DNA of 47,746 bases. It comes from a virus (Duplodnaviria > Caudoviricetes). Positions 2,574 to 46,607 of the stretch are shown here, in pieces. Every line of letters starts with the position of its first letter. Within the stretch, counting starts at the first letter, position 1. The position numbers and the translations under genes are program-made. Below the pieces are notes generated by a model that was not told where the DNA came from, made no database searches, and worked only from the letters and a program-made list of their open reading frames with translations. The stretch covers positions 1-47,746 of IMG/VR virus record IMGVR_UViG_3300048444_000079. One strand, written 5' to 3'.

Positions 2574-4502
2574 ATGACGTTGACAACTACACACTATCGC
2601 GCAGAGTACGTTCCTGACGGTGACGGCATCGTGGTCGATCTTTCCGATCACGCCGAAGCACTTATGAACTACGACGACATATCTTCACGCCTTAGTGCGG
2701 AGCAAGAGCAACGTATCGTAGATTACGTCAAGGCCGCGATGCAAATGTCGTATGACCGCATTTCGCGTCGATACGATCATTGGACCCAAGCAGACCGCGC
2801 ACACGATGTGTACGTCCGCCCTGACGCAACCTCTTTCCGCGAAAAGGCCGTTATCGCGGATACGCGAGCCATAGCTGACACAGTACTTACGTACCTTATG
2901 GCTGCGCTCACAGGCCGCAACCCTATGTTCCAGTTGGAGGGTCTTAACCGCAAGTCTCGTAAATCATCGGCTATCATCGAACGCCTTCTGCACCAGCAGA
3001 TGCGTCGAACAGCAGGGGAGGCTCGACTTGCCCAACACCTTCTTGACTGTATTCGGTACGGATACGCACCCACGAAAGTTACGTGGAATGCTGAAAGCCG
3101 AACAAACGAAATCACAAACTTCGACCCGCGTCGCGTATTCCATGACCCCCGTGTCCAGTGGGGGGACTGGGACAAGATGCAGTACATCATCTTCTCCGAT
3201 TACTCTTCCTTCGATGCCTTGGTACAAACAGGAATGTACCCAAAGCTCACGGAGTACCCAGCCCTCCGCAACCGCCTCACACCTCCTGCTGGTGGGTGGG
3301 ACGGACACCGTTGGCACCAAGAAGCGGGACGAGGACTAAGCATTGACCCCGCCGAGCGCAACAAGCGCGAAAGCGGCGGCACCTTCTTCACCCTTGGCGA
3401 CAGCCGCGTAGTCGACGAGTGTTGGCTACGCTTGGCGGGATACGAGATCAACATGCCACAGCTAGACCACGTCTGGCTGTGCGTAACGATCCTAGACGAG
3501 AACGTTGTAATACGTTTTCAACTTAACCCTTACGGACGCCAGTTCCCAGTAACCATAGGCGGGCTTTACCATGACGCACACAAAACCTACTCCCAGTCCT
3601 TGTACGACTTGCTCCTCCCCTTGCACGACATCGCAACGTGGCTCCTTCGCTCACGTATCGACAACGTACAAGCAGCCCTATCAAACCTTATCTTTGTTGA
3701 TCCCACTCAAATTGCAATCGGTGACCTCATTGACCGAAACCCCCATGGGCTTGTACGAACAATGCCTGGGGCCGACGTCGGAAAGGGCGTATTCATAGCC
3801 CAAGTGCCAGATGTCACGAGAGGCCATTGGCAAGACATCGAAGCCATGTCTGGCCTCAAGCAACGTCTTTCTGCCGCGTCCGATGCCCAGCAGGGTATGC
3901 CGACGGCAGACGGGATACGGACAGCCACAGAAATCCAGCGGTTAACACAGCTAGGTTCTCAGCGTCTAGGCGTCCTATCCCGCGTTATCTCGTCAACCTC
4001 CATCCGACCAATGGTACGCATGATGGTTGCGAACATCCAAGACTTCTTCGACCCAGAAGGCTCTATCCGTATCACGGAGAGCGACAGTGCCTCTATCGTC
4101 GCAGACAAGGTCAAGGATGGTTATCTGGACTTCAACCTTCCAGAAATCCAAGGCGACATCGACTACCTAGTTGTAGACGGAACACTGCCACTCGAACCGA
4201 CACGCAACGCCGAAACTTGGATCAACATGCTTAAAATCCTTAACGAGACAGGCATGGCGATGGAGTACAACTCTGGCAAAGTCGTCGAGGAAGCGATCCG
4301 CAGCATGGGCGTTTCTGACTTAGACCAGTTCAAGATTTCCAAAGAGCAATCCAAAGAAGGCCCAACGCCATCGCAGCAAATGATGCTGCTCGAAAAGATG
4401 CGCGGTGCTTCCGTACAGCCGCAAGGCAATATCGAAGACGAAGTTAAGAAGGGCAACCTTGTACCAATGAAGGAGGCACCTAATGCCAAACCCCGTCAGT
4501 AG
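2574..4502 (+). CDS. Portal protein (podovirus type)
   Basis: 642 aa directly after terL, with RTATEI motif and Q-rich C-terminus typical of podoviral portals. Confidence 0.88.
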   Translation: MTLTTTHYRAEYVPDGDGIVVDLSDHAEALMNYDDISSRLSAEQEQRIVDYVKAAMQMSYDRISRRYDHWTQADRAHDVYVRPDATSFREKAVIADTRAIADTVLTYLMAALTGRNPMFQLEGLNRKSRKSSAIIERLLHQQMRRTAGEARLAQHLLDCIRYGYAPTKVTWNAESRTNEITNFDPRRVFHDPRVQWGDWDKMQYIIFSDYSSFDALVQTGMYPKLTEYPALRNRLTPPAGGWDGHRWHQEAGRGLSIDPAERNKRESGGTFFTLGDSRVVDECWLRLAGYEINMPQLDHVWLCVTILDENVVIRFQLNPYGRQFPVTIGGLYHDAHKTYSQSLYDLLLPLHDIATWLLRSRIDNVQAALSNLIFVDPTQIAIGDLIDRNPHGLVRTMPGADVGKGVFIAQVPDVTRGHWQDIEAMSGLKQRLSAASDAQQGMPTADGIRTATEIQRLTQLGSQRLGVLSRVISSTSIRPMVRMMVANIQDFFDPEGSIRITESDSASIVADKVKDGYLDFNLPEIQGDIDYLVVDGTLPLEPTRNAETWINMLKILNETGMAMEYNSGKVVEEAIRSMGVSDLDQFKISKEQSKEGPTPSQQMMLLEKMRGASVQPQGNIEDEVKKGNLVPMKEAPNAKPRQ

Positions 4503-20688: not shown

Positions 20689-21114
20689 TTGGGCAAATGG
20701 AATGAGATGGTCGGGGCGGTCACACAGCTATACGCAAGTGACCCCTACTATAAATCTAAAAGCATCAACTTCCTTGCCGACGTTACGATCCCTGCTCTGG
20801 CCCTCAACCGATACAAGGTTTGGGTCAAGGACAAAAAACTTATTGGCTTTTGCGTTTGGGCATTTGCCACAGAGAAAGAGATAGAAGCAGATGATTGGAC
20901 GGGTGCAGAATTACTTTCCAAAAACGATGGGGAAGAAATACGTATCGTCCACTTCATGTGCCACGGCGGGAAGAGAGAAACGCTTTTGTTTGTGAACCAC
21001 ATAAGACGGACACTCTCCACACAGTACCCGCAGGTAAAGTTCGCAACTGCGAACAGACGTAAGCTGAATGGGTCAGTGCGCCCACACAAATGGTACAGAA
21101 AGGAAACGCAATGA
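20689..21114 (+). CDS. HlyC-like (toxin-activating) acyltransferase
   Basis: Pattern G.VT.L.AS.P.....I......PAL..N.Y.......IGFC.WA......G......F...G matches the HlyC/TAAT family; canonical catalytic His/Asp appear substituted. Confidence 0.65.
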   Translation: MGKWNEMVGAVTQLYASDPYYKSKSINFLADVTIPALALNRYKVWVKDKKLIGFCVWAFATEKEIEADDWTGAELLSKNDGEEIRIVHFMCHGGKRETLLFVNHIRRTLSTQYPQVKFATANRRKLNGSVRPHKWYRKETQ

Positions 21115-26626: not shown

Positions 26627-26654
26627 GTGACCATCAGGTTAAATGGAGTACCCG

Positions 26655-29600
26655 ATGGCTGACAATGCACGCAGTATCCTTAGTGGTTCGTTTCGCAACC
26701 AACAAGACAATAACACACCCGACTATCTTTCTAAGAGTGGCTACGAGCTACTATCTGACCAAGATGCGATAGCCGAGGTTCGCGACTATTACGCAGCCAA
26801 CGGGGTATACTTTAATAATACCAGCGAGATGTGGGACAAGTTCTACACAGACAAACGCTGGAGCGATGTCAACTCTTTATCTATGGGCCTCGATGCAGTT
26901 GAGTTTGCCACAGGTGGTGACAGCGGTAGAGAAAAGCTATCCAGACTTTCAAAGCTATGGGCGCAAGCACCATCTCGTGGTGGCGTACTTGATAAAGTAA
27001 TCGACTACGGTGTTGCTGGTGTTGCTGACCCAATCAACCTTATTGGCGTTGGTGCTGGTGGCGCGGCTGTAAAAGCGGGCCAAGCGGCAAGGCTCGCAGG
27101 CAAGACACTAGAGCAAGCAGCCAAGGAAGCAACGAAAGCAGGCGTACGCAAAGCGGCGGCGGGCGAAGCCGCAATCGGTGCTGGCACTGGACTTGCGTTT
27201 GATGCAGCGCAGCAAGGCATGGAGATTGCGCAAGGCGTATCAGAAGACTTCGACGTGGCACGCTTGGCGGGTGCTGGCATCATAGACGCTGGCGTTTCTG
27301 GTTTAGCTGCTGGTCTCCTTGTTAAAGGCGGCTCAATGCTGGGCATAGGCGAAGTCGCCAAGGGCGTTGGTAGCTTGGGCGATTGGGACAACACACGTCT
27401 TGGCTCTATGCTGGTACAAGAGCAAGGCTACATAACTCGTGAACGCGAAGCGATTAGCGCATCTCTATCTGGCGTTACAGACCAGAACGAAATAGACACA
27501 GGTCAGGCAGCACTTGCAGACCTTACTATAGACGAGCAAAATATTGCCGCTGTTCAACAGTACGTCAACAACATGGACCTTGAGCTAGATGATCTAGCCA
27601 AGCGTTTCCAAGACGAAACAGCGAACGGCAACGCATCAGCCGCATCCCAAGTTAAACAGCAGTTCGACGCCCTAGCACAAAAGCGGGCAAGAGTTCTAAG
27701 TATGGAGCCAGACGAACTGTTCGCAAGCGGCGATGTGCAACTACAGCAGCGGGCAGATACGCAACCAGCAGATAGTACGCAAGGTACGGCACCCCAGGAG
27801 CAAACTGGTCAAACAACCTCCCAGGGAGAACCGAACCAAGAACCAGAGAGTACGCAAGATAGTACTCAAGATAGTACGCAAGTAGCTTCCGACACTGCCG
27901 ATGACAGCGGAAATTCTGAAACAGATTTAGAGCCGAACGGTAACGCGCCACAAAATGTTTCTGAAGAAACTATCGAATGGGACTGGGTCAACGACGAACA
28001 AAAAGCTAGAGTTGGAGAGCAACTAGGTCTTGATGGTGACGAGCTAGACGCAGAGATACAGCGACGTGTAAACGATGGATCGCTTAAAGTTACAAAAGGC
28101 GGCAAGCTATATCGTGATACTTACGCAAAACTAACAAAGTCTGCAAAAGCAGCAGATGAAGTATCCGAACCAGAAGTTGAAGCAGAGGCAGATCAACAGG
28201 TAGACGAAGCTTTACCAGAACAACCTAACGCCCAAGAAGAAGATGTAGCTGACGCAGCACAAAGCACTGACGGCAACACAGCCGCGTTCGATGAGGCTGT
28301 ACGCAAGTACGAGAAAATCATGGATATGTCCAAAGGCTCAAGCGAGTTTCTGGACAACATGGATGCCATCATTCGCGGTATGTTGGAAGAAGGCCAGATT
28401 GACGGTCAAGTTTTCCGCTATCTAAAGCAACTTCTAGGGATGCACGCAGACGCAGACAGTCGAGGCATCAACGTCGCTAACGCTGACGAAGTCGTGAAGA
28501 TGCGCCGTGAGTTCTTAGAACGTGAGCAAACATTACCAGACATTAAAGGTGAAACAAAAACCATTGAGGGCCGCACAAGTGGTGGAGCAAAGGTTACAGT
28601 AGATGCATCAACAGATGACGCCACAGCCAAGCGTTCTGCTGGAAGTACAGCAAAAGCTCAAGACGCGCTTGAAAAGGGCGTTAAGACTGCTGGTACAACA
28701 GAAGTTGTAACATTCGACAAGAAGACAGGTGAGCGCATTGTTACGTCTGTGCCTCAATCCTTCTTACGCAGAGGTTTTGAAATTGGTGACGGATACACTG
28801 TCATTAACGCTAAAGATAGGTTCCCGAAACAAAGACTGACGCTAGACATACTTCGCGAGCTTGCAAAAAAAGAAGGCACAAAAGCACGCAATGTATACGC
28901 ATATCGTGCTGTCGGCGGTGAGACTGTCATCGGTAAAAAAGGCGTTAACAAGCGTGCAGGTAAAGCAGCAAAGGGAGAGACGGTTTTCTACTCCCCTCGC
29001 CTAGACAAAGTGTACGCAACAGAAGAAATGGCTATGAAGGCCATGGGCCTGAAGGTTGGCAGCAAGACAGCAAAGACAACTGTCAGCAAAGCAGAGCCAG
29101 AACCAATGACATCGACGGAGGCAGTCGAGGCTCGTGATGGCGCGTTCGAGAAGTTTAAGAAGACTGGCTCGCTAGAAGATTTAGAAAAAGACATCGAGAC
29201 CGTAGACGCTGCAACAGGTCAAACCGCACAGAAAGCAGAGAAGACCGTAAAGCAGGGCGGCGAGGTCAAGCGCGACGACATCCCTGACATCCCACGCGAA
29301 CGCGACAACGGCAAAATCTTTGCAATGATCCCACGCGAGGTTGGCAAAAAAGGCACGTGGTTCCGTAAAATATCACCGAAGCAAACAGACCCACGCCAAG
29401 TCATCGCACGTGCAAACCTAGACGACTATTATCTTGGGTACGTTTCTCCGAACATGACAGCCAAAGACCGCAAGAAGTTACTTGCTGACTTTGAGCCATT
29501 TGGGGAGGGCAACGACCCATATGAAAATCCGCTAGAAAAAGACGTTGAAGTCATTAAGTACCCATTGTCAGAGCAAGAAGCTCGCGATATGCGTATCGAA

Positions 29601-32600
29601 CTGAATGACTTAGATGCGATGATGCGCGAAGGTGTAGAGCTTGCGCTCGACGTGGCGGACGTATCTGCACGCATGAAGGACGCGTTCAAAAACAACACAA
29701 TGACTGTGTATGATTTGCACATCCTGAACCGCAGTTTGTTCGATCTACCTTTTGATGCGCGTCAAAACTTTGGAAGCAATGCAAAAGTAAGAAACAAAGA
29801 CCTTTCGTTTGCTCACCGCACGGCAGTCATGAAGAATGCTCTTGCAGTTCAGGACATATTCGCTCCTGACGGTATTCGCTTTAACGGCACAAATCTTGAA
29901 GACAGTATCCGCCTTGTAAAAGATGTTACTTGGAACAGTGCGCCAGCAAACGCAAAAGCAAACTTTGAAAAGCTTTTGCGTGCGGTTATACCAGACGATG
30001 GCAATGCGCCAAAGTTCGTGCCAACCACAAACACTAATGCTTTTGTGGCATCAACAGGCAAGTTCCATAGAGGACAGTCAAATGCCATAATGTTGAACGT
30101 CAACTTTGCAAATGAGAGCATTACTGGCGAAACAGGATTTAATCCAGAATTTGTATTGGCACACGAGATGGGCCACTGGATGTGGGTCAACGCCTTAGAC
30201 ACGCAAACCAAGTTGGACTTCTTAAAAAGTTTCGAGAAGTTTTATGACGAGAACGGCGTTCTTTACAAAGATGCCGCCTTAGACATAATAGAAAAGTCTC
30301 CAGCGGTTGTTGACCCCAAGACTGGCGAAGTCATGATGGGCGCATCAAATTTTGCTGAAAACTTTAACGAGTATTTTGCGAACCAGTTTGCCTTATTCAT
30401 TACGCAAAAGTACGACATGCTATCTGTGCCAGACCAAAGCATTTGGGAAAAGGTCACAGCTTTGGTTAAGTACTTTGTGCAAAAGATACAGGGCAAAGAG
30501 ATTATCGACCAAGACTTTGTCCCGCTTTTCCAAAAGCTAATTATCGACGATGTTCAAGCAGATCGCGTAAGCGTGATGAACCCAGTGGAGCCAACAACAA
30601 ACAAAGGCAAAGCAATACGCATACGCTTCACTGAAATGAGCAATTCATTCTATGAAGCACGTGCGGCATACGAGGAAAAAGACCTAGATAGAGCCGCCGA
30701 ACGGCTGTCTGACTTCGCTAAAGAACTTCGCGGTATGTCTACCACGAAGAAAGAAGCTGCAATCATCGCTCGTAAGAATGACGAGCCGCTACGTCCATAC
30801 TCTGGTGCATTTGCGGTGGTCGGACGTCATCACACAAAGATGAAAAAAGTTGCGCAGATTATCGAAAGCGTGACGCGTAAGTTCAAGATGGACGTCAAAA
30901 CCAAGGACGGAGAGGACTTCGACGGAATTGGCTTTGGTCCAGAAGTATACGATGGCATCGCTGAAATCTTTGAGAAAGAGCAACTAGACGAGTTCATTAA
31001 AGAAGTTCAGGCCACAATGAACAGAGCCTACGAAGACGTAGAGGGTGGAGACATCCCAGAGTTCAAGGCTACATCTACAGAGATTGCGCGTCGCGAAGCA
31101 CTTCCTAACGGCGTCGAAACTATCAAACGCGCACAACGTTTCAAGCGCGTCAAAGGTAGAGCAAACGCAGCAAAGCGTAAGCGGGCTGCTACAGGTCGTA
31201 ACATTAAGAACAACCAGAAAGTAAAAGACGCAACAGCCGCACCAGACATCAAAGACGCACCAAAGGTACGCATAAACGAGCTTGATATTAACGCTTCAAT
31301 CGAGGCGTACGAGCGCAGCTTGAACAATGGTGCTGAAACAAAGCAGTCTAAGAAGCTTCGCAGCCACATCATTAGCCTTATCCGTTCCATGCCTAATGCA
31401 ACACCTGTTGCTGACAAGAACATTACGAACGAAGTAAAGGCGATGCGTACGCCAGAGCTTATTCAGAATTATACGAAGGCTATCACAATGACGCGTAATG
31501 CGCCTGATACGCTTTCCAACGAAACGCCTGTGTACGAGTTTGCAGCAGACATTGCGCGTGCAATCGAGTGGGAGCTACAGCGTCGTGGTGAAAAGAACGT
31601 TGTCACCAACAACTTAGTCTTTAAGGCAATCGAGACAGAAAAGATGATGGACGCAGAAATTGGGGAAGACCCAAGCATTCCTTCATCTCTGCCATACACA
31701 GCCAGAAACGCACTGCGTGCTATCACACACCGTACCAGCGAACTACAGTCAACTGCACGTAAGATTGCATCAAGACTTATGTACATTGGTGCAGAGATTT
31801 CACCCAAAGTTACTTCTGAAAGTTTCAAAAACCTACGGAATGACGTACGCAAAATTGCGGGAGAAGTCACAAAGTCTGACGACATCATGAACTCTCTGGA
31901 GACTGTCGGTAGATATGTTTACAATTCGAACATTCTACCAGCAGCACAAAAAGAGACGCTTCGTCGCGCTACTGGTGCCGTAGGCTATGACCCGTCTGAA
32001 GTTCTTGCCCGCTTGGTGGCAGAAGACGCAGGCGTAAAAGCATCCAAAAAGACTGCTGCCATTCTTGATACAGTGGATGAAGACTTTGCAAAAGAACACA
32101 TGTTCGACGTTCTAAATGACGTACGCACGTCTATGCGTGAAGGTGTTGCATATGTACTCAATGGTCTTATTGCAAAGCCAAACGCTCGTAGAAACTTTGC
32201 GCCTTTGATGACGTACGGAAACATGATGTCAGAGACATCCAGTTTCGACCCAACATCACCAAAGAACAAGTTTATTGACGACGTCCCAGCAGAGTTCGCA
32301 GAGGACTTTGCGGCTGACTACATACAGCAAGCGTCACCTAATACTATCCGCGCGATGCAAGACTTTGTAAAAGATGGCAACATTGTTCCGTATTACGTTG
32401 ACGTAAGCAGTGTAGGTCCATTGCGTTCTGGAATAAGAGTGGACGCTACACCTCTTAACAAAATATCCAGAATGCCTATGAACGACGTAAGCGATGAAGT
32501 ACGTGACGTGCTTGATGAACTTCGTACTGTTCGTTCGAACATCAACACACTTCGCGCAAGACAAGGCTCTCGCGACAGCATTCAGCAATTATACTACGAA

Positions 32601-35600
32601 GAGGAAGCACTTCGTTTGGAGCTTGCTGAAATGGGTGTTCCTGACAAATACATGTCCACACCTGTTCTTATCCGAGACACAAAGCCTGCTAACTTCAAGC
32701 GTGATATGATCCCATCTGATGGCATTGTTAAGGTTTTATCTCGCGCCATACGCGAAGCAGACGACATAACTGTAGGGATGTCACGATCTGCTGCGATCCT
32801 TGACGGTATGCGTGGGTCGTACAAGCCGTCTGAAATGCTAAATCTTTTACAAGATGCAGCAGGTGGTGAGCAAAAACTTACCTCGATAATGCGCGACATT
32901 GGCTTCACAAGCATCAACATCAATGGGCAGAAAACAATGCTCAATGACACCGATGTGCGTGACTTGCGAGCAGCATTGTTTGACGAGCCAGAAATGGCAT
33001 TTAACGAAAACATGCCTAGCGATACAGTTCCGCACGTTGTTGACGCAATGGAGATTGCAAACGACAACGGAGATCAGGCATTCGAGGATGCACTTTCTGC
33101 ACTTGAAATTGCAGGTATGCCGAAGAAGACAACAGACATACTTGCAAAAGTTAAGCGTAAAAAAGAAATCACGCCGAATGAGGGTAGAGAGCTTCGTCGA
33201 GTAGCCAAGTTCGGCCTTGTACGCAACAACGCGCAGCGTTTGGCTCGCGCTGGTATGCGCTCGATAGCAGAGTTCTTCGAACCAAGCGACGCTGGCGCAG
33301 GCCACTTCGAGCGTTACGCTTTGCGTACTGGTCAGTTCCTTGGCCCGCTACAGCGTATGCTTATAAATCTACCTGACAGCGGAAACGGCATGAAACGCTG
33401 GCTACAAAACGGTCTTGGCGAAATGTTGTACGCGTACAATATCGGAGAGAGTGTAGGCTCCATGCTACGCATTCCGCCTCCCACACGCAAAATGCCTATC
33501 GGTAGCCACTTGAGAGTTCTCGGTGCGCTTCGTAACGAAGGCCGTGTTTCAGAACTTACATCTCAAGAGCGCGAGATTTACGAGTACATGCGCACCTACT
33601 TCAAAGAGGCCCGTGATAGATTGGTTTCTGCTGGATACGACGTAGGTAATATACGCAAAAACTATGTGCCACAGGTTTGGCGTCGCGACCTAATCGAAGC
33701 AGACCGTGAGGGTTTTGTGGACATTTTGTCCAAGTACTTCACAGCAGAACATGCAGAGCGAGGTGCCGTACTAAAACCACAACAAGCACGCCTTAAAGCT
33801 GAAGGTGTGGCTGACCGCCTTGTTCACGAAGACGGTGTGTGGGTTGGAGATGCTCACGCATTCAACAGAAGTGGTGAGCGTGGTGTTGACCATGTCGACT
33901 ACCAGCGTTTAATTCGTCTTGATGAAAGCTGGGCTGCACAGTTCACAAACATGCGTGACCCATCAAACGACCTAACTAAGTTCCTAGAGAACGACCTTAT
34001 GGTTATTGGTGCTAAGTACGCAGACAGTGTAGAACAACGTATCGACATTGCTGATAGATTTGGCGTAGGTGGTTTTGGTTACTTCGACTATCTATCTGTA
34101 ATGAACGGCGGCACAGACGCCATCGCAAGATTGTTGCGTTCGAACAAGGTTTTGCGCAAGGATTACAAACTATTCATCGACCCATCCAACACACAAGATG
34201 AAGTCGCTGGCGAAGGCGCACATGCGATCTTCCAATCAACTGTATTCATGGCTCCCATCCAAAAGGGTGGACCAGAGGGGCAGATGGTTGCAGAGAACAA
34301 AGCAAGAGAGCTTGCCCAAAAAGCGCACGATGGTGCATCAGTAGATGAAATCTACGAGGACATCATGTCCATGGTGGAGCCAGATAGCTTGAGTTCTGGT
34401 GCTGACCAGATGCGCAAGAACTTCTCATTCCGCGCGCGTGCGATTGCAGAAGCGTTGACTGACACTAACGGCCTAGACAAAGACTACATGCCTCAGTCTC
34501 ATATGGTTGAGGAAGCGGACAACCTATTCAAAGCCGTTGCTCGTAAGCCTGTCTATAATGCAAGCTTCGAGAAGCATCTTGAGAAGCCATCTTCATGGTT
34601 GCGCTCTTTCAACAGTGTGACACTTTTGCCATTCGTGACACTGTCTTCATTGGGCGATATTGTCTTGCCGCTTATTAGAAGTGGCAGCTTGCGTTCATCT
34701 ACAGAGGCGTACCGCAAGTGGATGGTCGATCCAGATGTAGGTCCAGCATATCGCGAAATGATCCGCAACGTCGGCGCATCTACACAGAACATCGTACAAG
34801 AGCGTATGTCTCGTGCGTTCGGAATGGACACAACACGCTTCTCTGCTGGCTTCTTTACAGCAATCGGCCTGACTGACTGGACAAACACAATGCGTGATAT
34901 ATCGGCAGCGGTATCTTACGAGTGGTTCAAGTCACAGCAAGAGATTGCAGTACGCAAGCCAAACACAAAAGCTGGACGCCAAGCCCGTCGTGTTCTTGAC
35001 GAGTACGGTCTAGGCGATTTGTACAATCAACCAGGAATGAACATCGAACGTATCTTGCGCAGCGGCTCTTCTGCTGACGTAGATCAGATGTACTACCAAG
35101 TTGCAGGTGCAATGCACAGGTTTGCAAACGAGACAATCTTTACGCCAAACCCACTAGACATTCCAATGTGGGCGCAATCACCAATCGGGCAAATGATATT
35201 CCAGTTGAAGTCCTTCCCATTGATGATGACGCGTATGGGTTACACCGTTTACAAAGAAGCAAAAGACCACAAGAACTTCATGCCTCTAATGTACTTCGCT
35301 GGCGCACCAGTTGTCGGTGCTGGCGTCGTCGGGGCAAAGGACGTAGTTCAGGGTCGTGGTGGTGAAGAGAACAGAGAGTTCGCAGTACGCGATAGACGCC
35401 TTGAGTTCTTGAAGGATTACGGCATCAGCGACGACGAAGGTGTAGCACTGGCACTTGGTTGGTATCGTGACGGTCTAATGCAAATGGGTGGTCTTGGCTT
35501 GATCGGATCGCTTATGTACGACACTGCATCACAACTAGATAATGGTGCGTACGGTGCGCAGCGTATCACCGAAATGCTTCTTGGCCCATCACTTGGCGTA

Positions 35601-35789
35601 CTTCATGACGCACAAACAATTCTTGCTGGCGGCATACAAGCAGGTGAGAATGCCATCATGGGTGAGGGGTCAAACGGCAAGCCACGCGCAGCAGTACGCG
35701 AGATTGTTAGCCGTGTACCACTTATCGGGCAGACAAGTGGTGTACGCGAGACGATTGTTGATACGCTCGCGGGGGAAGCTAAACGCTAG
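26655..35789 (+). CDS. Giant internal virion / polyvalent protein with zincin metallopeptidase motif
   Basis: About 3,044 aa; GGAG RBS favours ATG 26655. HEMGH (30162-30176) plus downstream NEYFA. C-terminal region resembles T7 gp16-like ejection protein ends (QLKSFP). Confidence 0.75.
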   Translation: MADNARSILSGSFRNQQDNNTPDYLSKSGYELLSDQDAIAEVRDYYAANGVYFNNTSEMWDKFYTDKRWSDVNSLSMGLDAVEFATGGDSGREKLSRLSKLWAQAPSRGGVLDKVIDYGVAGVADPINLIGVGAGGAAVKAGQAARLAGKTLEQAAKEATKAGVRKAAAGEAAIGAGTGLAFDAAQQGMEIAQGVSEDFDVARLAGAGIIDAGVSGLAAGLLVKGGSMLGIGEVAKGVGSLGDWDNTRLGSMLVQEQGYITREREAISASLSGVTDQNEIDTGQAALADLTIDEQNIAAVQQYVNNMDLELDDLAKRFQDETANGNASAASQVKQQFDALAQKRARVLSMEPDELFASGDVQLQQRADTQPADSTQGTAPQEQTGQTTSQGEPNQEPESTQDSTQDSTQVASDTADDSGNSETDLEPNGNAPQNVSEETIEWDWVNDEQKARVGEQLGLDGDELDAEIQRRVNDGSLKVTKGGKLYRDTYAKLTKSAKAADEVSEPEVEAEADQQVDEALPEQPNAQEEDVADAAQSTDGNTAAFDEAVRKYEKIMDMSKGSSEFLDNMDAIIRGMLEEGQIDGQVFRYLKQLLGMHADADSRGINVANADEVVKMRREFLEREQTLPDIKGETKTIEGRTSGGAKVTVDASTDDATAKRSAGSTAKAQDALEKGVKTAGTTEVVTFDKKTGERIVTSVPQSFLRRGFEIGDGYTVINAKDRFPKQRLTLDILRELAKKEGTKARNVYAYRAVGGETVIGKKGVNKRAGKAAKGETVFYSPRLDKVYATEEMAMKAMGLKVGSKTAKTTVSKAEPEPMTSTEAVEARDGAFEKFKKTGSLEDLEKDIETVDAATGQTAQKAEKTVKQGGEVKRDDIPDIPRERDNGKIFAMIPREVGKKGTWFRKISPKQTDPRQVIARANLDDYYLGYVSPNMTAKDRKKLLADFEPFGEGNDPYENPLEKDVEVIKYPLSEQEARDMRIELNDLDAMMREGVELALDVADVSARMKDAFKNNTMTVYDLHILNRSLFDLPFDARQNFGSNAKVRNKDLSFAHRTAVMKNALAVQDIFAPDGIRFNGTNLEDSIRLVKDVTWNSAPANAKANFEKLLRAVIPDDGNAPKFVPTTNTNAFVASTGKFHRGQSNAIMLNVNFANESITGETGFNPEFVLAHEMGHWMWVNALDTQTKLDFLKSFEKFYDENGVLYKDAALDIIEKSPAVVDPKTGEVMMGASNFAENFNEYFANQFALFITQKYDMLSVPDQSIWEKVTALVKYFVQKIQGKEIIDQDFVPLFQKLIIDDVQADRVSVMNPVEPTTNKGKAIRIRFTEMSNSFYEARAAYEEKDLDRAAERLSDFAKELRGMSTTKKEAAIIARKNDEPLRPYSGAFAVVGRHHTKMKKVAQIIESVTRKFKMDVKTKDGEDFDGIGFGPEVYDGIAEIFEKEQLDEFIKEVQATMNRAYEDVEGGDIPEFKATSTEIARREALPNGVETIKRAQRFKRVKGRANAAKRKRAATGRNIKNNQKVKDATAAPDIKDAPKVRINELDINASIEAYERSLNNGAETKQSKKLRSHIISLIRSMPNATPVADKNITNEVKAMRTPELIQNYTKAITMTRNAPDTLSNETPVYEFAADIARAIEWELQRRGEKNVVTNNLVFKAIETEKMMDAEIGEDPSIPSSLPYTARNALRAITHRTSELQSTARKIASRLMYIGAEISPKVTSESFKNLRNDVRKIAGEVTKSDDIMNSLETVGRYVYNSNILPAAQKETLRRATGAVGYDPSEVLARLVAEDAGVKASKKTAAILDTVDEDFAKEHMFDVLNDVRTSMREGVAYVLNGLIAKPNARRNFAPLMTYGNMMSETSSFDPTSPKNKFIDDVPAEFAEDFAADYIQQASPNTIRAMQDFVKDGNIVPYYVDVSSVGPLRSGIRVDATPLNKISRMPMNDVSDEVRDVLDELRTVRSNINTLRARQGSRDSIQQLYYEEEALRLELAEMGVPDKYMSTPVLIRDTKPANFKRDMIPSDGIVKVLSRAIREADDITVGMSRSAAILDGMRGSYKPSEMLNLLQDAAGGEQKLTSIMRDIGFTSININGQKTMLNDTDVRDLRAALFDEPEMAFNENMPSDTVPHVVDAMEIANDNGDQAFEDALSALEIAGMPKKTTDILAKVKRKKEITPNEGRELRRVAKFGLVRNNAQRLARAGMRSIAEFFEPSDAGAGHFERYALRTGQFLGPLQRMLINLPDSGNGMKRWLQNGLGEMLYAYNIGESVGSMLRIPPPTRKMPIGSHLRVLGALRNEGRVSELTSQEREIYEYMRTYFKEARDRLVSAGYDVGNIRKNYVPQVWRRDLIEADREGFVDILSKYFTAEHAERGAVLKPQQARLKAEGVADRLVHEDGVWVGDAHAFNRSGERGVDHVDYQRLIRLDESWAAQFTNMRDPSNDLTKFLENDLMVIGAKYADSVEQRIDIADRFGVGGFGYFDYLSVMNGGTDAIARLLRSNKVLRKDYKLFIDPSNTQDEVAGEGAHAIFQSTVFMAPIQKGGPEGQMVAENKARELAQKAHDGASVDEIYEDIMSMVEPDSLSSGADQMRKNFSFRARAIAEALTDTNGLDKDYMPQSHMVEEADNLFKAVARKPVYNASFEKHLEKPSSWLRSFNSVTLLPFVTLSSLGDIVLPLIRSGSLRSSTEAYRKWMVDPDVGPAYREMIRNVGASTQNIVQERMSRAFGMDTTRFSAGFFTAIGLTDWTNTMRDISAAVSYEWFKSQQEIAVRKPNTKAGRQARRVLDEYGLGDLYNQPGMNIERILRSGSSADVDQMYYQVAGAMHRFANETIFTPNPLDIPMWAQSPIGQMIFQLKSFPLMMTRMGYTVYKEAKDHKNFMPLMYFAGAPVVGAGVVGAKDVVQGRGGEENREFAVRDRRLEFLKDYGISDDEGVALALGWYRDGLMQMGGLGLIGSLMYDTASQLDNGAYGAQRITEMLLGPSLGVLHDAQTILAGGIQAGENAIMGEGSNGKPRAAVREIVSRVPLIGQTSGVRETIVDTLAGEAKR

Positions 35790-38992: not shown

Positions 38993-39036
38993 GTTGTCTA
39001 TTAGTTGTCTTTAGCGTATAAGCAACAGCATTGCAA
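38993..39036. promoter_or_regulatory. Overlapping opposed promoters with a GTTGT-N6-GTTGT operator
   Basis: + strand TTGTCT(38994)-N17-TATAAG; - strand TTGCAA(39036)-N17-TAAAGA; direct repeat at 38993-39008. Confidence 0.55.
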
Positions 39037-39048
39037 GAGGAAAAACAC

Positions 39049-39279
39049 ATGACCTTTGACATCGAAAGTTTAATAAACGACTTGGGAGGCGCAAGGGAGG
39101 TGTCACGTCGTCTAAATACAGGACGTTCCGTACCATATGGTTGGGCAAGGCGTGGCAGTGTGTCTTCTGCTTACCTATCACGTATCAAAGAAGCATTCCC
39201 TTGGGTTAGCTTCGATCAATATTTCATGGGAGAAAACAGTGAGCGAGTATCTGAATACAGCATTGGAGATGCTAGATGA
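39049..39279 (+). CDS. Cro-like HTH protein
   Basis: LINDLGG...VSRRL......YGW.RRG.V pattern; GAGG RBS; first gene of the rightward operon. Confidence 0.75.
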   Translation: MTFDIESLINDLGGAREVSRRLNTGRSVPYGWARRGSVSSAYLSRIKEAFPWVSFDQYFMGENSERVSEYSIGDAR

Positions 39280-41185
39280 AGGATGGTGGGTTGTTCCAAT
39301 CCACCCAAACGAAAAGAGGCCAGTCGTAAAGTGGGGCGAACTTTATGACGAGGGGAAGTTCCCTACCGAAGAGCAAGTAATACAATGGTGGGAAACATTT
39401 CCAAACAGCTACGTTGGGATTGTAACAGGCGAGCTTAGTGGCGTCCTTGTTGTTGACTGTGACAACGAGGAAGCCGAGGCTTACGCTAGGGAAGTCGGCC
39501 TTACCCAAACGCCTTGGGTGGTTCAAACCAAGCGAGGCAAGCACTTCTACTTTAAGTGGCCCGAAGGCGCGGGTCACATTAAGACACTGACGTGGAGTAA
39601 CGCAGACGGCGTTGAGTGGCCTAGAGATGTAGTTAAGGGCTTGGACCGAAAGGCTCACAAAGGCATCGCGCTCGTACCCCCTACTCCAAACTATACGCGA
39701 TTGAGTGGCGATGATTGGGATGACGTGCCAGTGTATCCACTGAAGAACTACGGCACAGAAAAGCCGAGCAACGTAGTTTCATTCGACGACTTCAAGTTTG
39801 GCAACCTTTCTTTAGCGCACATAAAGATCAAGAGAGGTGTTGTCGAAACAACGAGAGAGCGTGTTGAGAAGATGGGCCGTAAGCTTATGGCTGGCGTTGG
39901 TGATAACCGACATCAAATGCTTGTAAGCTTGGCTGGGGAGTTGGCAGCGCAAGGCCACACGCGTGAAAGCTGCGAAGCGTCTATGATCGAGTACGTTGCA
40001 GAGTTCTTTTACGACCCTCACAAGGTTGACGTAAAAGAGTTCCAAAGTGTAATCGACCATGCGTACGCAAAAGAAGAGAAGAAACCGAAGGTCGAGGAAC
40101 CGAAGCCAGAGCCAAGCAACTTTAAACCGATCACGACATTTGATGCTGACCGTCTCGCCGAGGAAGCGAGCAAGATAAAGTACTTTGTTGACCCTATCAT
40201 ACCTGACACTGGTACGATCATTCAGGTTCACGGATACTCTGGACACGGGAAGTCGATGTTCATACGTCACCTTCTATATGCAGCGGCGGCAGGTGCGCCA
40301 TCGTTTGGGCCATTCGACATACACGAGAAGCCACGCGTTCTCTATTTAGATTTCGAGAACAGCAAGCAAAACATATCCAAGTTCCTTACAAGGTCTCGTA
40401 ATTCCTTCGGAGATGCAGAGGGACGCTTTATGATATGGACGCCGTTCATCGACGACAAGATGATGAACCTTAAAGAAGACGCTGGCATCAACAACCTGCA
40501 AAGCTGGATCAACTTCAACAAGCCAGAGATAGTTGTAATCGACACCATCCGTACAGCTTGGTCTGGCCTACAAGAGAACAGCGCAGAAGAGTGGGGCAAC
40601 ATAAACAAGCTTGCCCTTACACTGCGTAACGCAGGTATGACCGTCATACTTGTACACCATTCCAACAAACCCGCGGATGGTGGTAGGTCTGGTCGTGAGG
40701 CGGGAAGTTCGAACCAGTTGACGGTACTCGAAACCCAGATCAAGGTTACGCAAGTATACGCTGACAAAGAAACAGCGGACGTGAAAGCTGGCATATACGA
40801 CGGAGACATACCGCGCACTCCGTACACAATGTTGGGGACCGCACCAGTACGCACGCCCAGTGAGAGACTTCAAGTTTGCATGGAGCTTCGCTACGGGAAG
40901 GTTCGTGAATGGAGTGACGCCCACGAACCAGTCATGTACATCGCATTCCTTGAAGACGAGAACACAGAGAACGTGCGTGTTGTTTCTGAAAGTACAGCGA
41001 AGCAGCGTGCCATTAAAGCTGCGCAACCTTGGACGAATAGTGAGGGTATTGTTATGCCACCTCTATCCGACAAAGAAATATCTAATAAGGTTGGCAAACC
41101 TGTAAGCGTGGTCGCTGACTGGACTAAGCACTTGAGGCACGAGCATATAGAGAGCCAAGTCTCGAATGCAAAAACTAATTCCTAA
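39239..41185 (+). CDS. Bifunctional primase-polymerase / helicase (Prim-Pol + AAA_25)
   Basis: GTG start with GGGAG RBS; VVDCD and T.RGKHFYF prim-pol motifs; GYSGHGKS, YLDFE, VVIDT, LVHH helicase motifs. Confidence 0.88.
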   Translation: MSEYLNTALEMLDEGWWVVPIHPNEKRPVVKWGELYDEGKFPTEEQVIQWWETFPNSYVGIVTGELSGVLVVDCDNEEAEAYAREVGLTQTPWVVQTKRGKHFYFKWPEGAGHIKTLTWSNADGVEWPRDVVKGLDRKAHKGIALVPPTPNYTRLSGDDWDDVPVYPLKNYGTEKPSNVVSFDDFKFGNLSLAHIKIKRGVVETTRERVEKMGRKLMAGVGDNRHQMLVSLAGELAAQGHTRESCEASMIEYVAEFFYDPHKVDVKEFQSVIDHAYAKEEKKPKVEEPKPEPSNFKPITTFDADRLAEEASKIKYFVDPIIPDTGTIIQVHGYSGHGKSMFIRHLLYAAAAGAPSFGPFDIHEKPRVLYLDFENSKQNISKFLTRSRNSFGDAEGRFMIWTPFIDDKMMNLKEDAGINNLQSWINFNKPEIVVIDTIRTAWSGLQENSAEEWGNINKLALTLRNAGMTVILVHHSNKPADGGRSGREAGSSNQLTVLETQIKVTQVYADKETADVKAGIYDGDIPRTPYTMLGTAPVRTPSERLQVCMELRYGKVREWSDAHEPVMYIAFLEDENTENVRVVSESTAKQRAIKAAQPWTNSEGIVMPPLSDKEISNKVGKPVSVVADWTKHLRHEHIESQVSNAKTNS

Positions 41186-41212
41186 AAAAGAAGCCCCGCG
41201 TTAGCGGGGCTT
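41184..41212 (-). terminator. Rho-independent terminator (U-tract on - strand; possibly bidirectional)
   Basis: aagccccgc-gtta-gcggggctt perfect stem, with an A-run (41184-41189) on the left. Confidence 0.85.
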
Positions 41213-41288
41213 AGTGTAAGGAGCCTGTCTGTGAGGCGGACACGCTTCCATTGGGAGATTGCAGAAACAAATGGGAGGATATGTCTGC
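41184..41288 (-). ncRNA. Putative ~105-nt small regulatory RNA with anti-SD tracts
   Basis: TTGTGC-N17-TACATT promoter, three hairpins, CCUCCC loop, intrinsic terminator, no ORF. Confidence 0.7.
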
Positions 41289-41294
41289 TATTTA

Positions 41295-41324
41295 AATGTA
41301 GCGCATAGACAACTAATGCACAAC
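41295..41324 (-). promoter_or_regulatory. Sigma70-type promoter of the sRNA, overlapped by GTTGT-N6-GTTGT
   Basis: -35 TTGTGC (41323-41318), 17 bp, -10 TACATT (41300-41295). Confidence 0.65.
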
Positions 41325-41346: not shown

Positions 41347-41500
41347 ACTTTTTTGCGTACTTTTTTGCGTACCGATTTCGATAAAATCGCTGCCCGCCTT
41401 TGCTTAACCGCTTGTCTCGCTCAATCGACCCGAAGTCCCTTCGGGGCGATCTCGCTTACCTTCGCTTGCAAGTCGCTTGCGATTTTATCGCCTTTGTCGG
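41347..41500. repeat. Tandem repeat plus large inverted-repeat structure; candidate replication origin
   Basis: acttttttgcgt x2 (41347-41370); perfect 12-bp IR 41379-41390/41479-41490; central hairpin 41429-41445; about 7 CGCTT-like units. Confidence 0.55.
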
Positions 41501-41579
41501 AAAAGTCAACACCCTTAGTTGTACAAAAGTTGTTTACATGATATGTGTTGCGTATAGAAAACAGTACAACGGTGACAGC

Positions 41580-41891
41580 ATGTCGAAGAAATTTGCGCTG
41601 TCTACAGAGCAAGAGCATTGGTTGAAGGACAATCATTCAAAATTCACAAACGCACATTTAGCTCGCCAACTAGGTTGCTGCGTAGACACTCTCAAACGTA
41701 TCATGATGAAGATGGACTTAGCATACTTCCCAGGAGCTAAGTACCATTACCGATCAAAGCCAAAGGTCTGGTCTCGACCTTGTATGATATGTGGCTGCAA
41801 GAAGTCACGACCTGTCAATCAATACAGATGTACGCCGTGTCACGAACGTGAGGCGGCTTCTGACTATATGTGGGAAGAGCATTATGGGTAA
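41580..41891 (+). CDS. HTH + Cys4 zinc-ribbon transcriptional regulator (loosely GcrA-like N-terminus)
   Basis: FTNAHLARQLGCCVDTLKR HTH; CMIC...CTPC. Confidence 0.65.
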   Translation: MSKKFALSTEQEHWLKDNHSKFTNAHLARQLGCCVDTLKRIMMKMDLAYFPGAKYHYRSKPKVWSRPCMICGCKKSRPVNQYRCTPCHEREAASDYMWEEHYG

Positions 41892-44903: not shown

Positions 44904-44953
44904 ACAACTTTAACACAACCAACTTGACAAATGGGTTGCGTCTGCGCAAATAT
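44904..44953 (+). promoter_or_regulatory. Promoter of the LuxR-HTH/integrase unit with adjacent ACAAC-N6-ACAAC operator
   Basis: TTGACA 44924-44929, AAATAT 44948-44953; repeat 44904-44919. Confidence 0.55.
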
Positions 44954-45007: not shown

Positions 45008-45493
45008 ATGCCTAATATAAACGAAAGTTTGCGGTTTGATCTAGCGAGGCTTGAAGCCAAGCTAGATATAATACTGCAACACTGCATAAGCACGAGTGAT
45101 GGTTCCGCGAGCAAGGTTGTCCAGTCGGACGATTTAAACGCAGCCGAGCTATCTCTGCTGCGAAACATGACGACGAAACAACACGTCGTCTTGCAGCTTC
45201 TAATCCAAGGTTTGCGGAACCAAGACATCGCCCCCATCATGGGCATTGGCGAGAACACGGTAAAGCTTCATGTCCGATCAGTCTGTAAAAAGATTGGTGT
45301 AAAAACACGAGGCCAAGCAGCGATGCACGGCAGTGACATATTAAACAGGGCTGACCCTAAAGAATACCAGAGACTAAGCGGTGGTATACCCTTAGACTGG
45401 TCAATTACTTTTAGCGATCCAGACCAATATGCACCTTTGTACGCAGCACAAACAGAAAGGGGGAAAGAGAATTGGGTTTCCTCAAACTTGTAA
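45008..45493 (+). CDS. LuxR-type HTH transcriptional regulator
   Basis: MTTKQHVVLQLLIQGLRNQDIAPIMGIGENTVKLHVRSVCKKIGVKTR; AAGGA RBS. Confidence 0.88.
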   Translation: MPNINESLRFDLARLEAKLDIILQHCISTSDGSASKVVQSDDLNAAELSLLRNMTTKQHVVLQLLIQGLRNQDIAPIMGIGENTVKLHVRSVCKKIGVKTRGQAAMHGSDILNRADPKEYQRLSGGIPLDWSITFSDPDQYAPLYAAQTERGKENWVSSNL

Positions 45494-46567: not shown

Positions 46568-46607
46568 GGCCCAGTGGCTCAACTGGATAGAGCAGCCCCC
46601 TCCTAAG
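46568..46607 (+). mobile_element. attP core: 5' half of tRNA-Arg(CCT)
   Basis: GGCCCAGTGGCTCAACTGGATAGAGCAGCCCCCTCCTAAG has the acceptor 5' strand, D-arm and anticodon loop (CCT 46602-46604); no T-arm or 3' half follows; 80 bp downstream of int. Confidence 0.8.

Follow-up and report, generated by a model that had tools for sequence, protein, structure and literature searches.

We examined a 47,746-nt stretch of viral DNA (IMG/VR record IMGVR_UViG_3300048444_000079; Duplodnaviria, Caudoviricetes), hereafter the window, which is a linear virus record of about 85% completeness. Behind its primase-helicase gene (39239..41185, plus strand; Prim-Pol/AAA_25 according to family matches) lies a minus-strand segment that is a real, conserved gene for a predicted non-coding RNA with anti-Shine-Dalgarno (anti-SD) tracts. 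The RNA is predicted from its fold and its homologs to be about 105 nt long (41184..41288, minus strand), to consist of hairpin 1, a linker, hairpin 2 and a terminator, and to be transcribed convergently on the primase gene. An earlier sequence-only reading had described a minus-strand unit with a promoter, two hairpins, a linker and a terminator but without an open reading frame (ORF). The sequence from 41323 to 41184 is laid out as described, and no ORF of at least 70 codons lies over the unit.

Hairpin 1 (41261..41288, minus strand) exposes in its loop the heptamer UCCUCCC (41279-41273), the complement of GGGAGGA, subsequently referred to as seed A. We predict a loop of 10 nt, UCCUCCCAUU, instead of the 6 nt originally proposed. 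It is followed by the single-stranded linker AAUCUCCCAAU (41250..41260, minus strand), which holds seed B, UCUCCCA (41258-41252), complementary to TGGGAGA in the ribosome-binding site (RBS) of the primase. Hairpin 2 (41220..41249, minus strand), with the CCUCA-type loop CGCCUCAC, is a variable module that is absent in the homologous locus L133. The intrinsic terminator (41184..41212, minus strand) has a 9-bp stem with seven G-C pairs (41212-41191) and a U-tract that runs to 41184, and it abuts the primase stop codon. The fold of the complete RNA is far more stable than that of shuffled sequences (z = -4.7, 0/200 shuffles as good), most of this stability coming from the terminator; without the terminator, z is -2.4 and 4/200 shuffles are as good. 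Both CUCCC tracts are predicted to be unpaired, with probabilities of 1.00 in the loop and 0.97 in the linker.

The predicted promoter, TTGTGC-17-TACATT (41295..41324, minus strand; -35 at 41323-41318, -10 at 41300-41295), is overlapped by the direct repeat GTTGT-N6-GTTGT (41324-41309), a candidate operator. G41288, the proposed transcription start, is the seventh base after the -10 element. The layout and conservation of this promoter bear out the earlier proposal; its match to the sigma70 consensus is only 7/12, and our promoter scan did not list it. The promoter call therefore rests on conservation, the sequence being kept as GCTACATT or ACTACATT in the closest relatives. In a run on record as RNA (X5), one contig covers 41207-41459 at a depth of 7.7, and the other contigs between 39000 and 43000 have depths of 2.3-10.1. 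These contigs were not counted as evidence of expression, because strand and ends are invisible in them and they could derive from DNA. We also considered the plus strand, whose GGA loops might act as a CsrA/RsmA sponge or provide an SD sequence for a downstream ORF. This reading was rejected, since the U-tract and the conserved -10 element lie on the minus strand; in addition, GGGAGGA is not followed by a conserved ATG, and the matches to RsmY span the terminator only.

Relatives of the primase were gathered from viral contigs (9 loci plus the best 80 of 243), metagenomes (35) and genomes (4). A quick tree of 40 primases contains a 20-row clade (SH-aLRT 100) in which 15 rows have a unit made up of a promoter, an exposed CUCCC and a terminator facing the primase, with stems that are largely unrelated, whereas none of the 20 rows outside it does; the contig of L157 does not reach the slot, and in the other half, too, some rows are short. 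A script that first called a minus-strand terminator behind the primase and only then looked for CUCCC, skipping loci of less than 250 bases, found CUCCC within 100 nt upstream of the terminator in 16/17 clade loci versus 0/8 loci outside the clade, related loci in this comparison not being independent of each other. The background frequency of CUCCC is 3–5% per 100 nt, and among the terminators found anywhere in four genomes, 5/37 have a CUCCC, a number that should include the RNA's own terminator in three of them. The only clade locus with a terminator call that lacks the upstream CUCCC is L243, and the terminators of the 17 clade loci differ in sequence. No terminator was called in six clade loci (L150, L151, L155, L160, L163 and L140), of which L140 has a terminator that was recognised separately. 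The other five carry a different structured non-coding stretch on the minus strand in the slot downstream of the primase, with GCCUUCAC or a similar tract and no CUCCC.

We curated 16 homologs, which were selected for having CUCCC and range from about 65 to 135 bases in length. The first CUCCC is unpaired with a probability of at least 0.8 in 14 of them, and in 13 it is enclosed by a stem of 6–13 pairs whose sequence differs between homologs, as judged from per-sequence folds. While the window RNA has two hairpins, the homologs have one or two. UCCUCCC occurs in 10/16, CCUCA in 8/16 and CCUCCUCCC in none, and each homolog has a promoter-like sequence close upstream, as judged by eye. The sequence-only reading had proposed an Rfam search and a covariation analysis. 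No Rfam family matched at gathering level anywhere in the window. When four close homologs were analysed with RNAalifold, one compensatory pair out of 23 was all that emerged. Since MAFFT misaligns the indels, the covariation count is weak, and the evidence for the stems therefore rests on the per-sequence folds. A covariance model (R1) recovered ten distinct clade loci beyond the window, some of them weakly, but missed L245, L248, L250, L240, L139 and L140; it is insensitive and therefore weak for showing absence. A search for the loop-plus-promoter pattern returned 25 stretches, seven of which adjoin a primase, whereas 18 look like chance matches. The pattern of a constant exposed seed with freely changing stems is the one reported for cuckoo RNAs.

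Some related structures were found beside these homologs. L008 contains a second minus-strand unit of promoter, hairpin and U-tract upstream of its anti-SD RNA (~3860-3960), which is devoid of CUCCC. In the other branch of the tree, L335 (3633-3749, from G011) and G007 (~15531) carry CCUCCUCCC or UCCUCCC followed by a terminator, directly after a stop codon. It is possible that these are anti-SD RNAs derived from 3' untranslated regions. A second anti-SD RNA divergent from the luxR and integrase genes was sought in 10 genomes and not found; CUCCC at that position was either unconserved or attributable to the SD sequence of a neighbouring gene, read in reverse.

The window comes from a phage of the CRP-810 type (PMC11288001), since it has the replication gene block of Roseobacter phage CRP-810 and the two primases share 37% identity. 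The core genes of this type, Prim-Pol, AAA ATPase, PD-(D/E)XK nuclease, TerL, portal and capsid, are found in the window in conserved order. The likeness extends to the content and order of Prim-Pol, AAA, PD-(D/E)XK nuclease, resolvase, LuxR and integrase genes, and a small RNA is not mentioned in the consulted sections on the family (PMC11288001). The RNA unit marks one clade that leaves out CRP-810, which has no such unit behind its primase. Likewise, the unit is absent at the primase slot of G008-G011 and G015, genomes with integrase matches, its absence elsewhere in these genomes being weakly shown. Behind the integrase gene of the window lies an attP-like 5' half of a tRNA-Arg(CCT) (46568..46607, plus strand) that is 97.5% identical over 40 nt to sequences of Ruegeria TM1040 and Tritonibacter mobilis. 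In both genomes the matched 40 bases belong to the tRNA-Arg(cct) gene, and six other records reach only 86–90%. This match points to a host in the Roseobacteraceae. CRP-810, in contrast, uses a tRNA-Thr attachment site. Its integration was verified by PCR (PMC11288001), and roseobacters, the group of the likely host, carry cuckoo RNAs (PMC4615179).

The segment might not encode an independent RNA. In this case the terminator would end a longer transcript that starts at a sigma70 promoter at 41509 and would shield the primase from antisense read-through, with CUCCC being incidental. The proximal promoter is indeed weak by consensus, and the upstream one is strong and conserved in 38/52 loci. 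However, CUCCC is kept in homologs that are otherwise unalignable, each of which has its own promoter-like sequence close upstream, and the upstream promoter also occurs outside the clade, in relatives that lack the terminator unit. Moreover, a 293-nt read-through transcript would fold such that most of either tract is paired (unpaired 0.30 and 0.10). We therefore regard a mere read-through terminator as very improbable.

The upstream promoter belongs to an element of its own, found throughout the family, between the primase and helix-turn-helix (HTH) genes (41379-41509, minus strand). Here, TTGACT-16-TAAAAT forms the sigma70 promoter, and its -10 lies within one arm of a 12-bp inverted repeat. 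The repeat encloses a purine-rich core of 66–94 bases with a central hairpin, and its arms change together in 38/52 loci, CRP-810 included. The element is a candidate replication origin or primer-RNA unit.

The sequence-only reading had likened the RNA to AbcR and cuckoo RNAs. This comparison holds for a conserved, ORF-less RNA of AbcR layout; it does not extend to membership by model. AbcR1 and AbcR2 (alpha-r15, from Rhizobiales) resemble it in having a length of about 105–120 nt and two hairpins plus a terminator. The 5' loop of AbcR is described as containing an 8-nt seed, CUCCUCCC, with another anti-SD tract located between SL1 and SL2 (PMC8844928), and the M1 motif of AbcR, CUCCCA, lies in the first hairpin (PMC5461406). 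The window RNA likewise has a 5'-loop seed, UCCUCCCA (41279-41272) in place of CUCCUCCC or CUCCCA, and a second seed between the hairpins, which is UCUCCCA rather than the GUUCCC or UUCCCCUC of AbcR. A further likeness is that the predicted targets are enriched for transport genes; AbcR represses ABC-transporter mRNAs through its seeds, while for the window RNA the enrichment is a prediction in a proxy host (see below). On the other hand, the window RNA is phage-borne with a likely Roseobacteraceae host, no LysR-type gene (VtlR/LsrB) is among the family matches of the window, and the promoter carries a phage box instead. The Rfam ar15 model gave no match at gathering level, nor at E values up to 10 in the window and up to 5 in three homolog loci.

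Cuckoo RNAs (CcsR1-4, NfeR1, ar14) resemble the window RNA in that they consist of 2–4 adjacent hairpins, the stems of which vary and the loops of which are C-rich and carry anti-SD tracts; they are also found in roseobacters. The Rfam ar14 model (RF02344) aligned over its full length, although below the cut-off of 58.8 bits, with the window (19.7 bits, E 0.25) and with the homolog L217 (32.3 bits, E 0.006). In contrast to cuckoo RNAs, all 16 homologs are without the exact 9-mer of the loop motif, CCUCCUCCC; the loops are not identical repeats, and the RNA has its own promoter and a terminator facing the primase gene. DUF1127 is the partner gene of CcsR loci (PMC8034643). We found a DUF1127 (CcaF1-like) gene at 4075-4218 of L137 (minus strand; PF06568, E 1e-8), directly behind the RNA terminator and on the same strand. 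There is none in the window, none beside the other homologs, and the gene is cleanly missing from the near-identical L138. Taken together, the RNA is AbcR-like in its predicted layout and cuckoo/CcsR-like in its ar14 score and in the DUF1127 neighbour of L137, and by model score and motif it is a member of neither family.

These similarities raise the question of whether the RNA is a decoy that mimics host cuckoo/CcsR RNAs or the 3' end of 16S rRNA and titrates Hfq or CcaF1-type proteins. CcsR binds both Hfq and CcaF1, according to PMC4615179 and PMC8034643; in line with a decoy, the CUCCC core alone is constant while stems and the number of modules vary, and one homolog has the DUF1127 gene at its side. 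Against it stand the absence of the full cuckoo motif from the homologs, the restriction of DUF1127 to a single variant, and the fact that known RNAs of such a layout act by pairing. A decoy function thus seems improbable to us.

We found no phage-encoded AbcR- or cuckoo-type RNA in the literature searched, which consisted largely of abstracts and mostly left out subscription papers. The word "phage" is absent from the main text of PMC4615179 and PMC8034643. The words cuckoo, ar14 and Shine-Dalgarno are likewise missing from the main text of PMC10690425, which catalogues candidate RNAs of viruses, and six of its supplementary files contain none of five terms searched; since three others were outside the search, the RNA may stand there unnamed. 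With this scope, the class of alphaproteobacterial RNA is known, but the phage-borne variant found here has apparently not been described before.

Structured RNAs encoded by phages can act as immunity factors, as in the case of the P4 CI RNA, and the sequence-only reading had suggested that the RNA silences replication genes in the lysogen. The c4 antisense RNA of P1 and P7 (PMC12197685) resembles the window RNA as a phage-encoded structured RNA, the latter being predicted to act at or near the RBS of a phage message. However, the window RNA is without an Rfam match and offers a generic anti-SD seed of 5–7 nt in place of a specific target pair. We also saw no antirepressor target, and the RNA promoter is of the same kind as those of the lytic operons.

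The last point follows from the distribution of the GTTGT-N6-GTTGT box, of which the window has four copies versus 0.04 expected, always at promoters. Apart from the RNA promoter, it is found at the promoter of the operon of a Cro-like gene and the primase (38993..39022, plus strand), where its register is as in the RNA promoter, a spacing of 8 bases separating the second repeat from the -10 at both. These two promoters also have the 11-mer ATTAGTTGTCT in common, which occurs nowhere else in the window. A box search located a third copy (41518..41533, plus strand) at the promoter of HTH/zinc-finger and RusA-like genes (the HTH-resolvase promoter). The fourth, reversed, copy (44904..44919) lies directly upstream of a TTGACA (44924) in front of luxR. 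Because the same box stands in the same register at the RNA and replication promoters, the RNA is predicted to be on when the replication genes are on. Among relatives, G001 has all four boxes and G002 three. In the 230 bases before luxR, GTTGT-type half-sites number five in the window, five in G001, two in G003 and three in G014; GGTGT-type half-sites number four in CRP-810, four in G008 and three in G009, and G010, G011 and G015 have 0–1 half-sites of either type. The GGTGT sites of CRP-810 are also present at its cro and HTH promoters.

We infer that one phage regulator, a repressor or an activator, binds the GTTGT-type boxes. The simplest candidate would be the LuxR/GerE-type HTH protein encoded directly upstream of the integrase (45008..45493, plus strand; PF00196, E 1.5e-13; 39% identical to the LuxR of CRP-810), with the Cro-like protein as the alternative. 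A LuxR-type regulator stands beside the integrase in 10 of the 12 genomes examined. Its placement resembles that of lambda cI at PRM. No XRE/S24-type CI match was obtained in the scanned ORFs of the window or in a further 7 kb of G001, and CRP-810 integrates, yet has no annotated CI. These data suggest that the LuxR-type protein is the CI equivalent of CRP-810-type phages and a candidate repressor. The earlier remark that no CI is present in the window is thus correct as regards XRE/S24-type proteins, but it overlooked the LuxR-type HTH protein beside the integrase and was based on an incomplete record.

For the proposed immunity RNA, these observations are mostly unfavourable. The missing CI, the presence of an integrase and an attP, and the complementarity to the primase RBS would all agree with an RNA made in the lysogen after the fashion of P4 CI or P1 c4. 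However, its promoter has the box in the register of the lytic replication promoters, the LuxR-type regulator is at hand as a candidate repressor, and six integrase-bearing, near-complete relatives, among them the integrating CRP-810, have no comparable unit at the slot. Long or repeated target sites like those of c4 are missing, and there is no significant co-variation between RNA and RBS (see below). We consider lysogen immunity highly unlikely.

What does the RNA pair with? The 7-nt complementarity of its CUCCC tracts to the primase RBS ATGGGAGA (39226-39233), pointed out in the sequence-only reading, is real. This RBS and the GTG start at 39239 (39226..39241, plus strand) form the candidate phage target. 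They lie within the 3' end of the Cro-like HTH gene (39049..39279, plus strand; phrog_8008, E 0.003), which is present in 12/12 genomes examined and absent from the ORF list. When 43 phage starts chosen by hand were scored by ungapped pairing and accessibility, the primase site came out on top (-7.6 kcal/mol, the next reaching -5.5), and seed B provides the best primase pairing; the resolvase start, outside the 43, scores -3.7. Among automatically called starts in five genomes, the primase ranks 2/49, 2/47, 1/35, 1/26 and 2/22.

It is therefore conceivable that the RNA is directed primarily at the primase of the phage itself. A co-expressed RNA would then cap replication early as a feed-forward brake and bias the lysis-lysogeny decision, without conferring lysogen immunity. 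The ranks speak for such a brake, as does the occurrence of GGGAG in the primase RBS in 7/14 distinct RNA-bearing rows versus 2/45 others. In L249 the cognate pairing with the primase site extends over 13 nt, and in L133 and L134, which do not have seed B, the primase has GGGAGC instead of GGGAGA. However, cognate RNA–RBS pairs did not score significantly better than permuted ones (p 0.054-0.10 for 13 representatives, 0.17-0.26 without L249), so that there is no significant co-variation, and in L008, L245 and L240 the RNA is a poor match for the cognate RBS. L245 instead has a 14-nt pairing with the primase site of another phage. Matches of 13–14 nt such as those of L249 and L245 lie within the host control, which gave scores of -17 to -18 for 4/13 RNAs; long pairings are no commoner than in this control, and specific, co-varying phage target sites as in RNA immunity factors were not found. 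The five ranked genomes include four that are closely related, and the high rank is mostly explained by the rarity of GGGAG, which only 2/44 phage genes, the primase among them, possess. Finally, the site is located within a translated ORF. The primase RBS remains the best phage site in the window, but a brake on the primase as the main function appears unlikely, if still worth considering.

For host sites, we used as a proxy 800 kb of one Ruegeria TM1040 replicon with crude gene calls. Seed A, the commonest loop, complements GGGAGGA, and GGGAGG occurs in none of 44 phage RBSs versus 25/379 called starts on the proxy replicon. Twenty-four of the 379 starts bind the window RNA as well as or better than the primase does, as do 23 of 48 host GGGAG sites. 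For the seven seed-A RNAs tested, host GGGAG sites outscore the primase sites (p for "primase better" 0.87-0.999). Among the proxy messages with GGGAGG(A), genes for ABC, TRAP and BCCT transport are over-represented. When 23 of the 24 strong-binding starts were scanned (one, spanning two loci, was left out), nine belonged to transport genes versus 5/40 random other starts (p 0.026), and five to solute-binding proteins versus 1/40 (p 0.021).

We consider the following the best explanation and hold its chances of being right to be evenly balanced. The RNA would be a trans-acting, early-lytic anti-SD RNA that blocks GGGAG-type sites, chiefly those of host uptake genes, and possibly also trims the primase. 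Its transcription would likely coincide with that of the replication operons in the early lytic phase, a timing deduced from the boxes. Its exposed CUCCC seeds would then likely pair with GGGAG-type RBSs and block translation, mainly of host messages. Seed A would silence host messages with GGGAGG(A), of which the phage's own genes have none, and seed B may additionally damp the primase. The likely gain for the phage would be a diversion of host translation and uptake during infection. Of the functions offered by the sequence-only reading, a reprogramming of host mRNAs is the one that fits best.

Several observations weigh against this explanation. Transcription of the RNA gene is itself predicted from sequence features, and the box half-site is absent from 3/16 homolog promoters. 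The difference in GGGAGG between phage and proxy is not significant (p 0.09), and the proxy is a single replicon with crude gene calls. Any RNA complementary to GGGAGG would give the same list of transporters, and the list therefore describes opportunity, not use. Seed A is absent in 6/16 homologs, and for L245, L249 and L140, which have only seed B, the best primase site is equalled by just 0, 1 and 1 of 48 host sites. Likewise, the frequent GGGAG in the primase RBS of RNA-bearing phages would not be predicted by a purely host-directed RNA. The data fit a set of two seeds, one of host type and one of primase type, both of which are held by the window RNA. One may go further and imagine that one seed stops host uptake messages while the other throttles the primase of the phage itself or of co-infecting relatives, the RNA thereby steering the lysis-lysogeny decision or serving as a weapon between phages. 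We regard this extended version as rather unlikely.

Three other genes of the window deserve mention. A conserved 100-aa protein with an HTH and four cysteines (Cys4), without a Pfam or PHROG match, is encoded at 41580-41882 and is also present in CRP-810 at 41% identity, where it is unannotated. An acyltransferase matching the HlyC Pfam family (20689-21114) occupies the position in the virion module at which CRP-810 has its GNAT gene. The ORF at 26643-35789, of 3048 aa and without a Pfam or PHROG match, probably encodes an internal virion protein.

To our knowledge, few trans-acting small RNAs encoded by phages have been characterised. If our explanation is correct, an abundant family of marine phages would possess, in the form of an RNA, an equivalent to an auxiliary metabolic gene. 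The RNA would exploit a difference in RBS dialect, GGGAGG in the host versus AGGAG/AGGA in the phage, to dampen nutrient-uptake genes of roseobacters, bacteria that drive marine carbon and sulfur turnover. The box common to four promoters would, in addition, provide a model for how lysogeny may be controlled through a LuxR-type protein in a family in which no canonical CI is seen.

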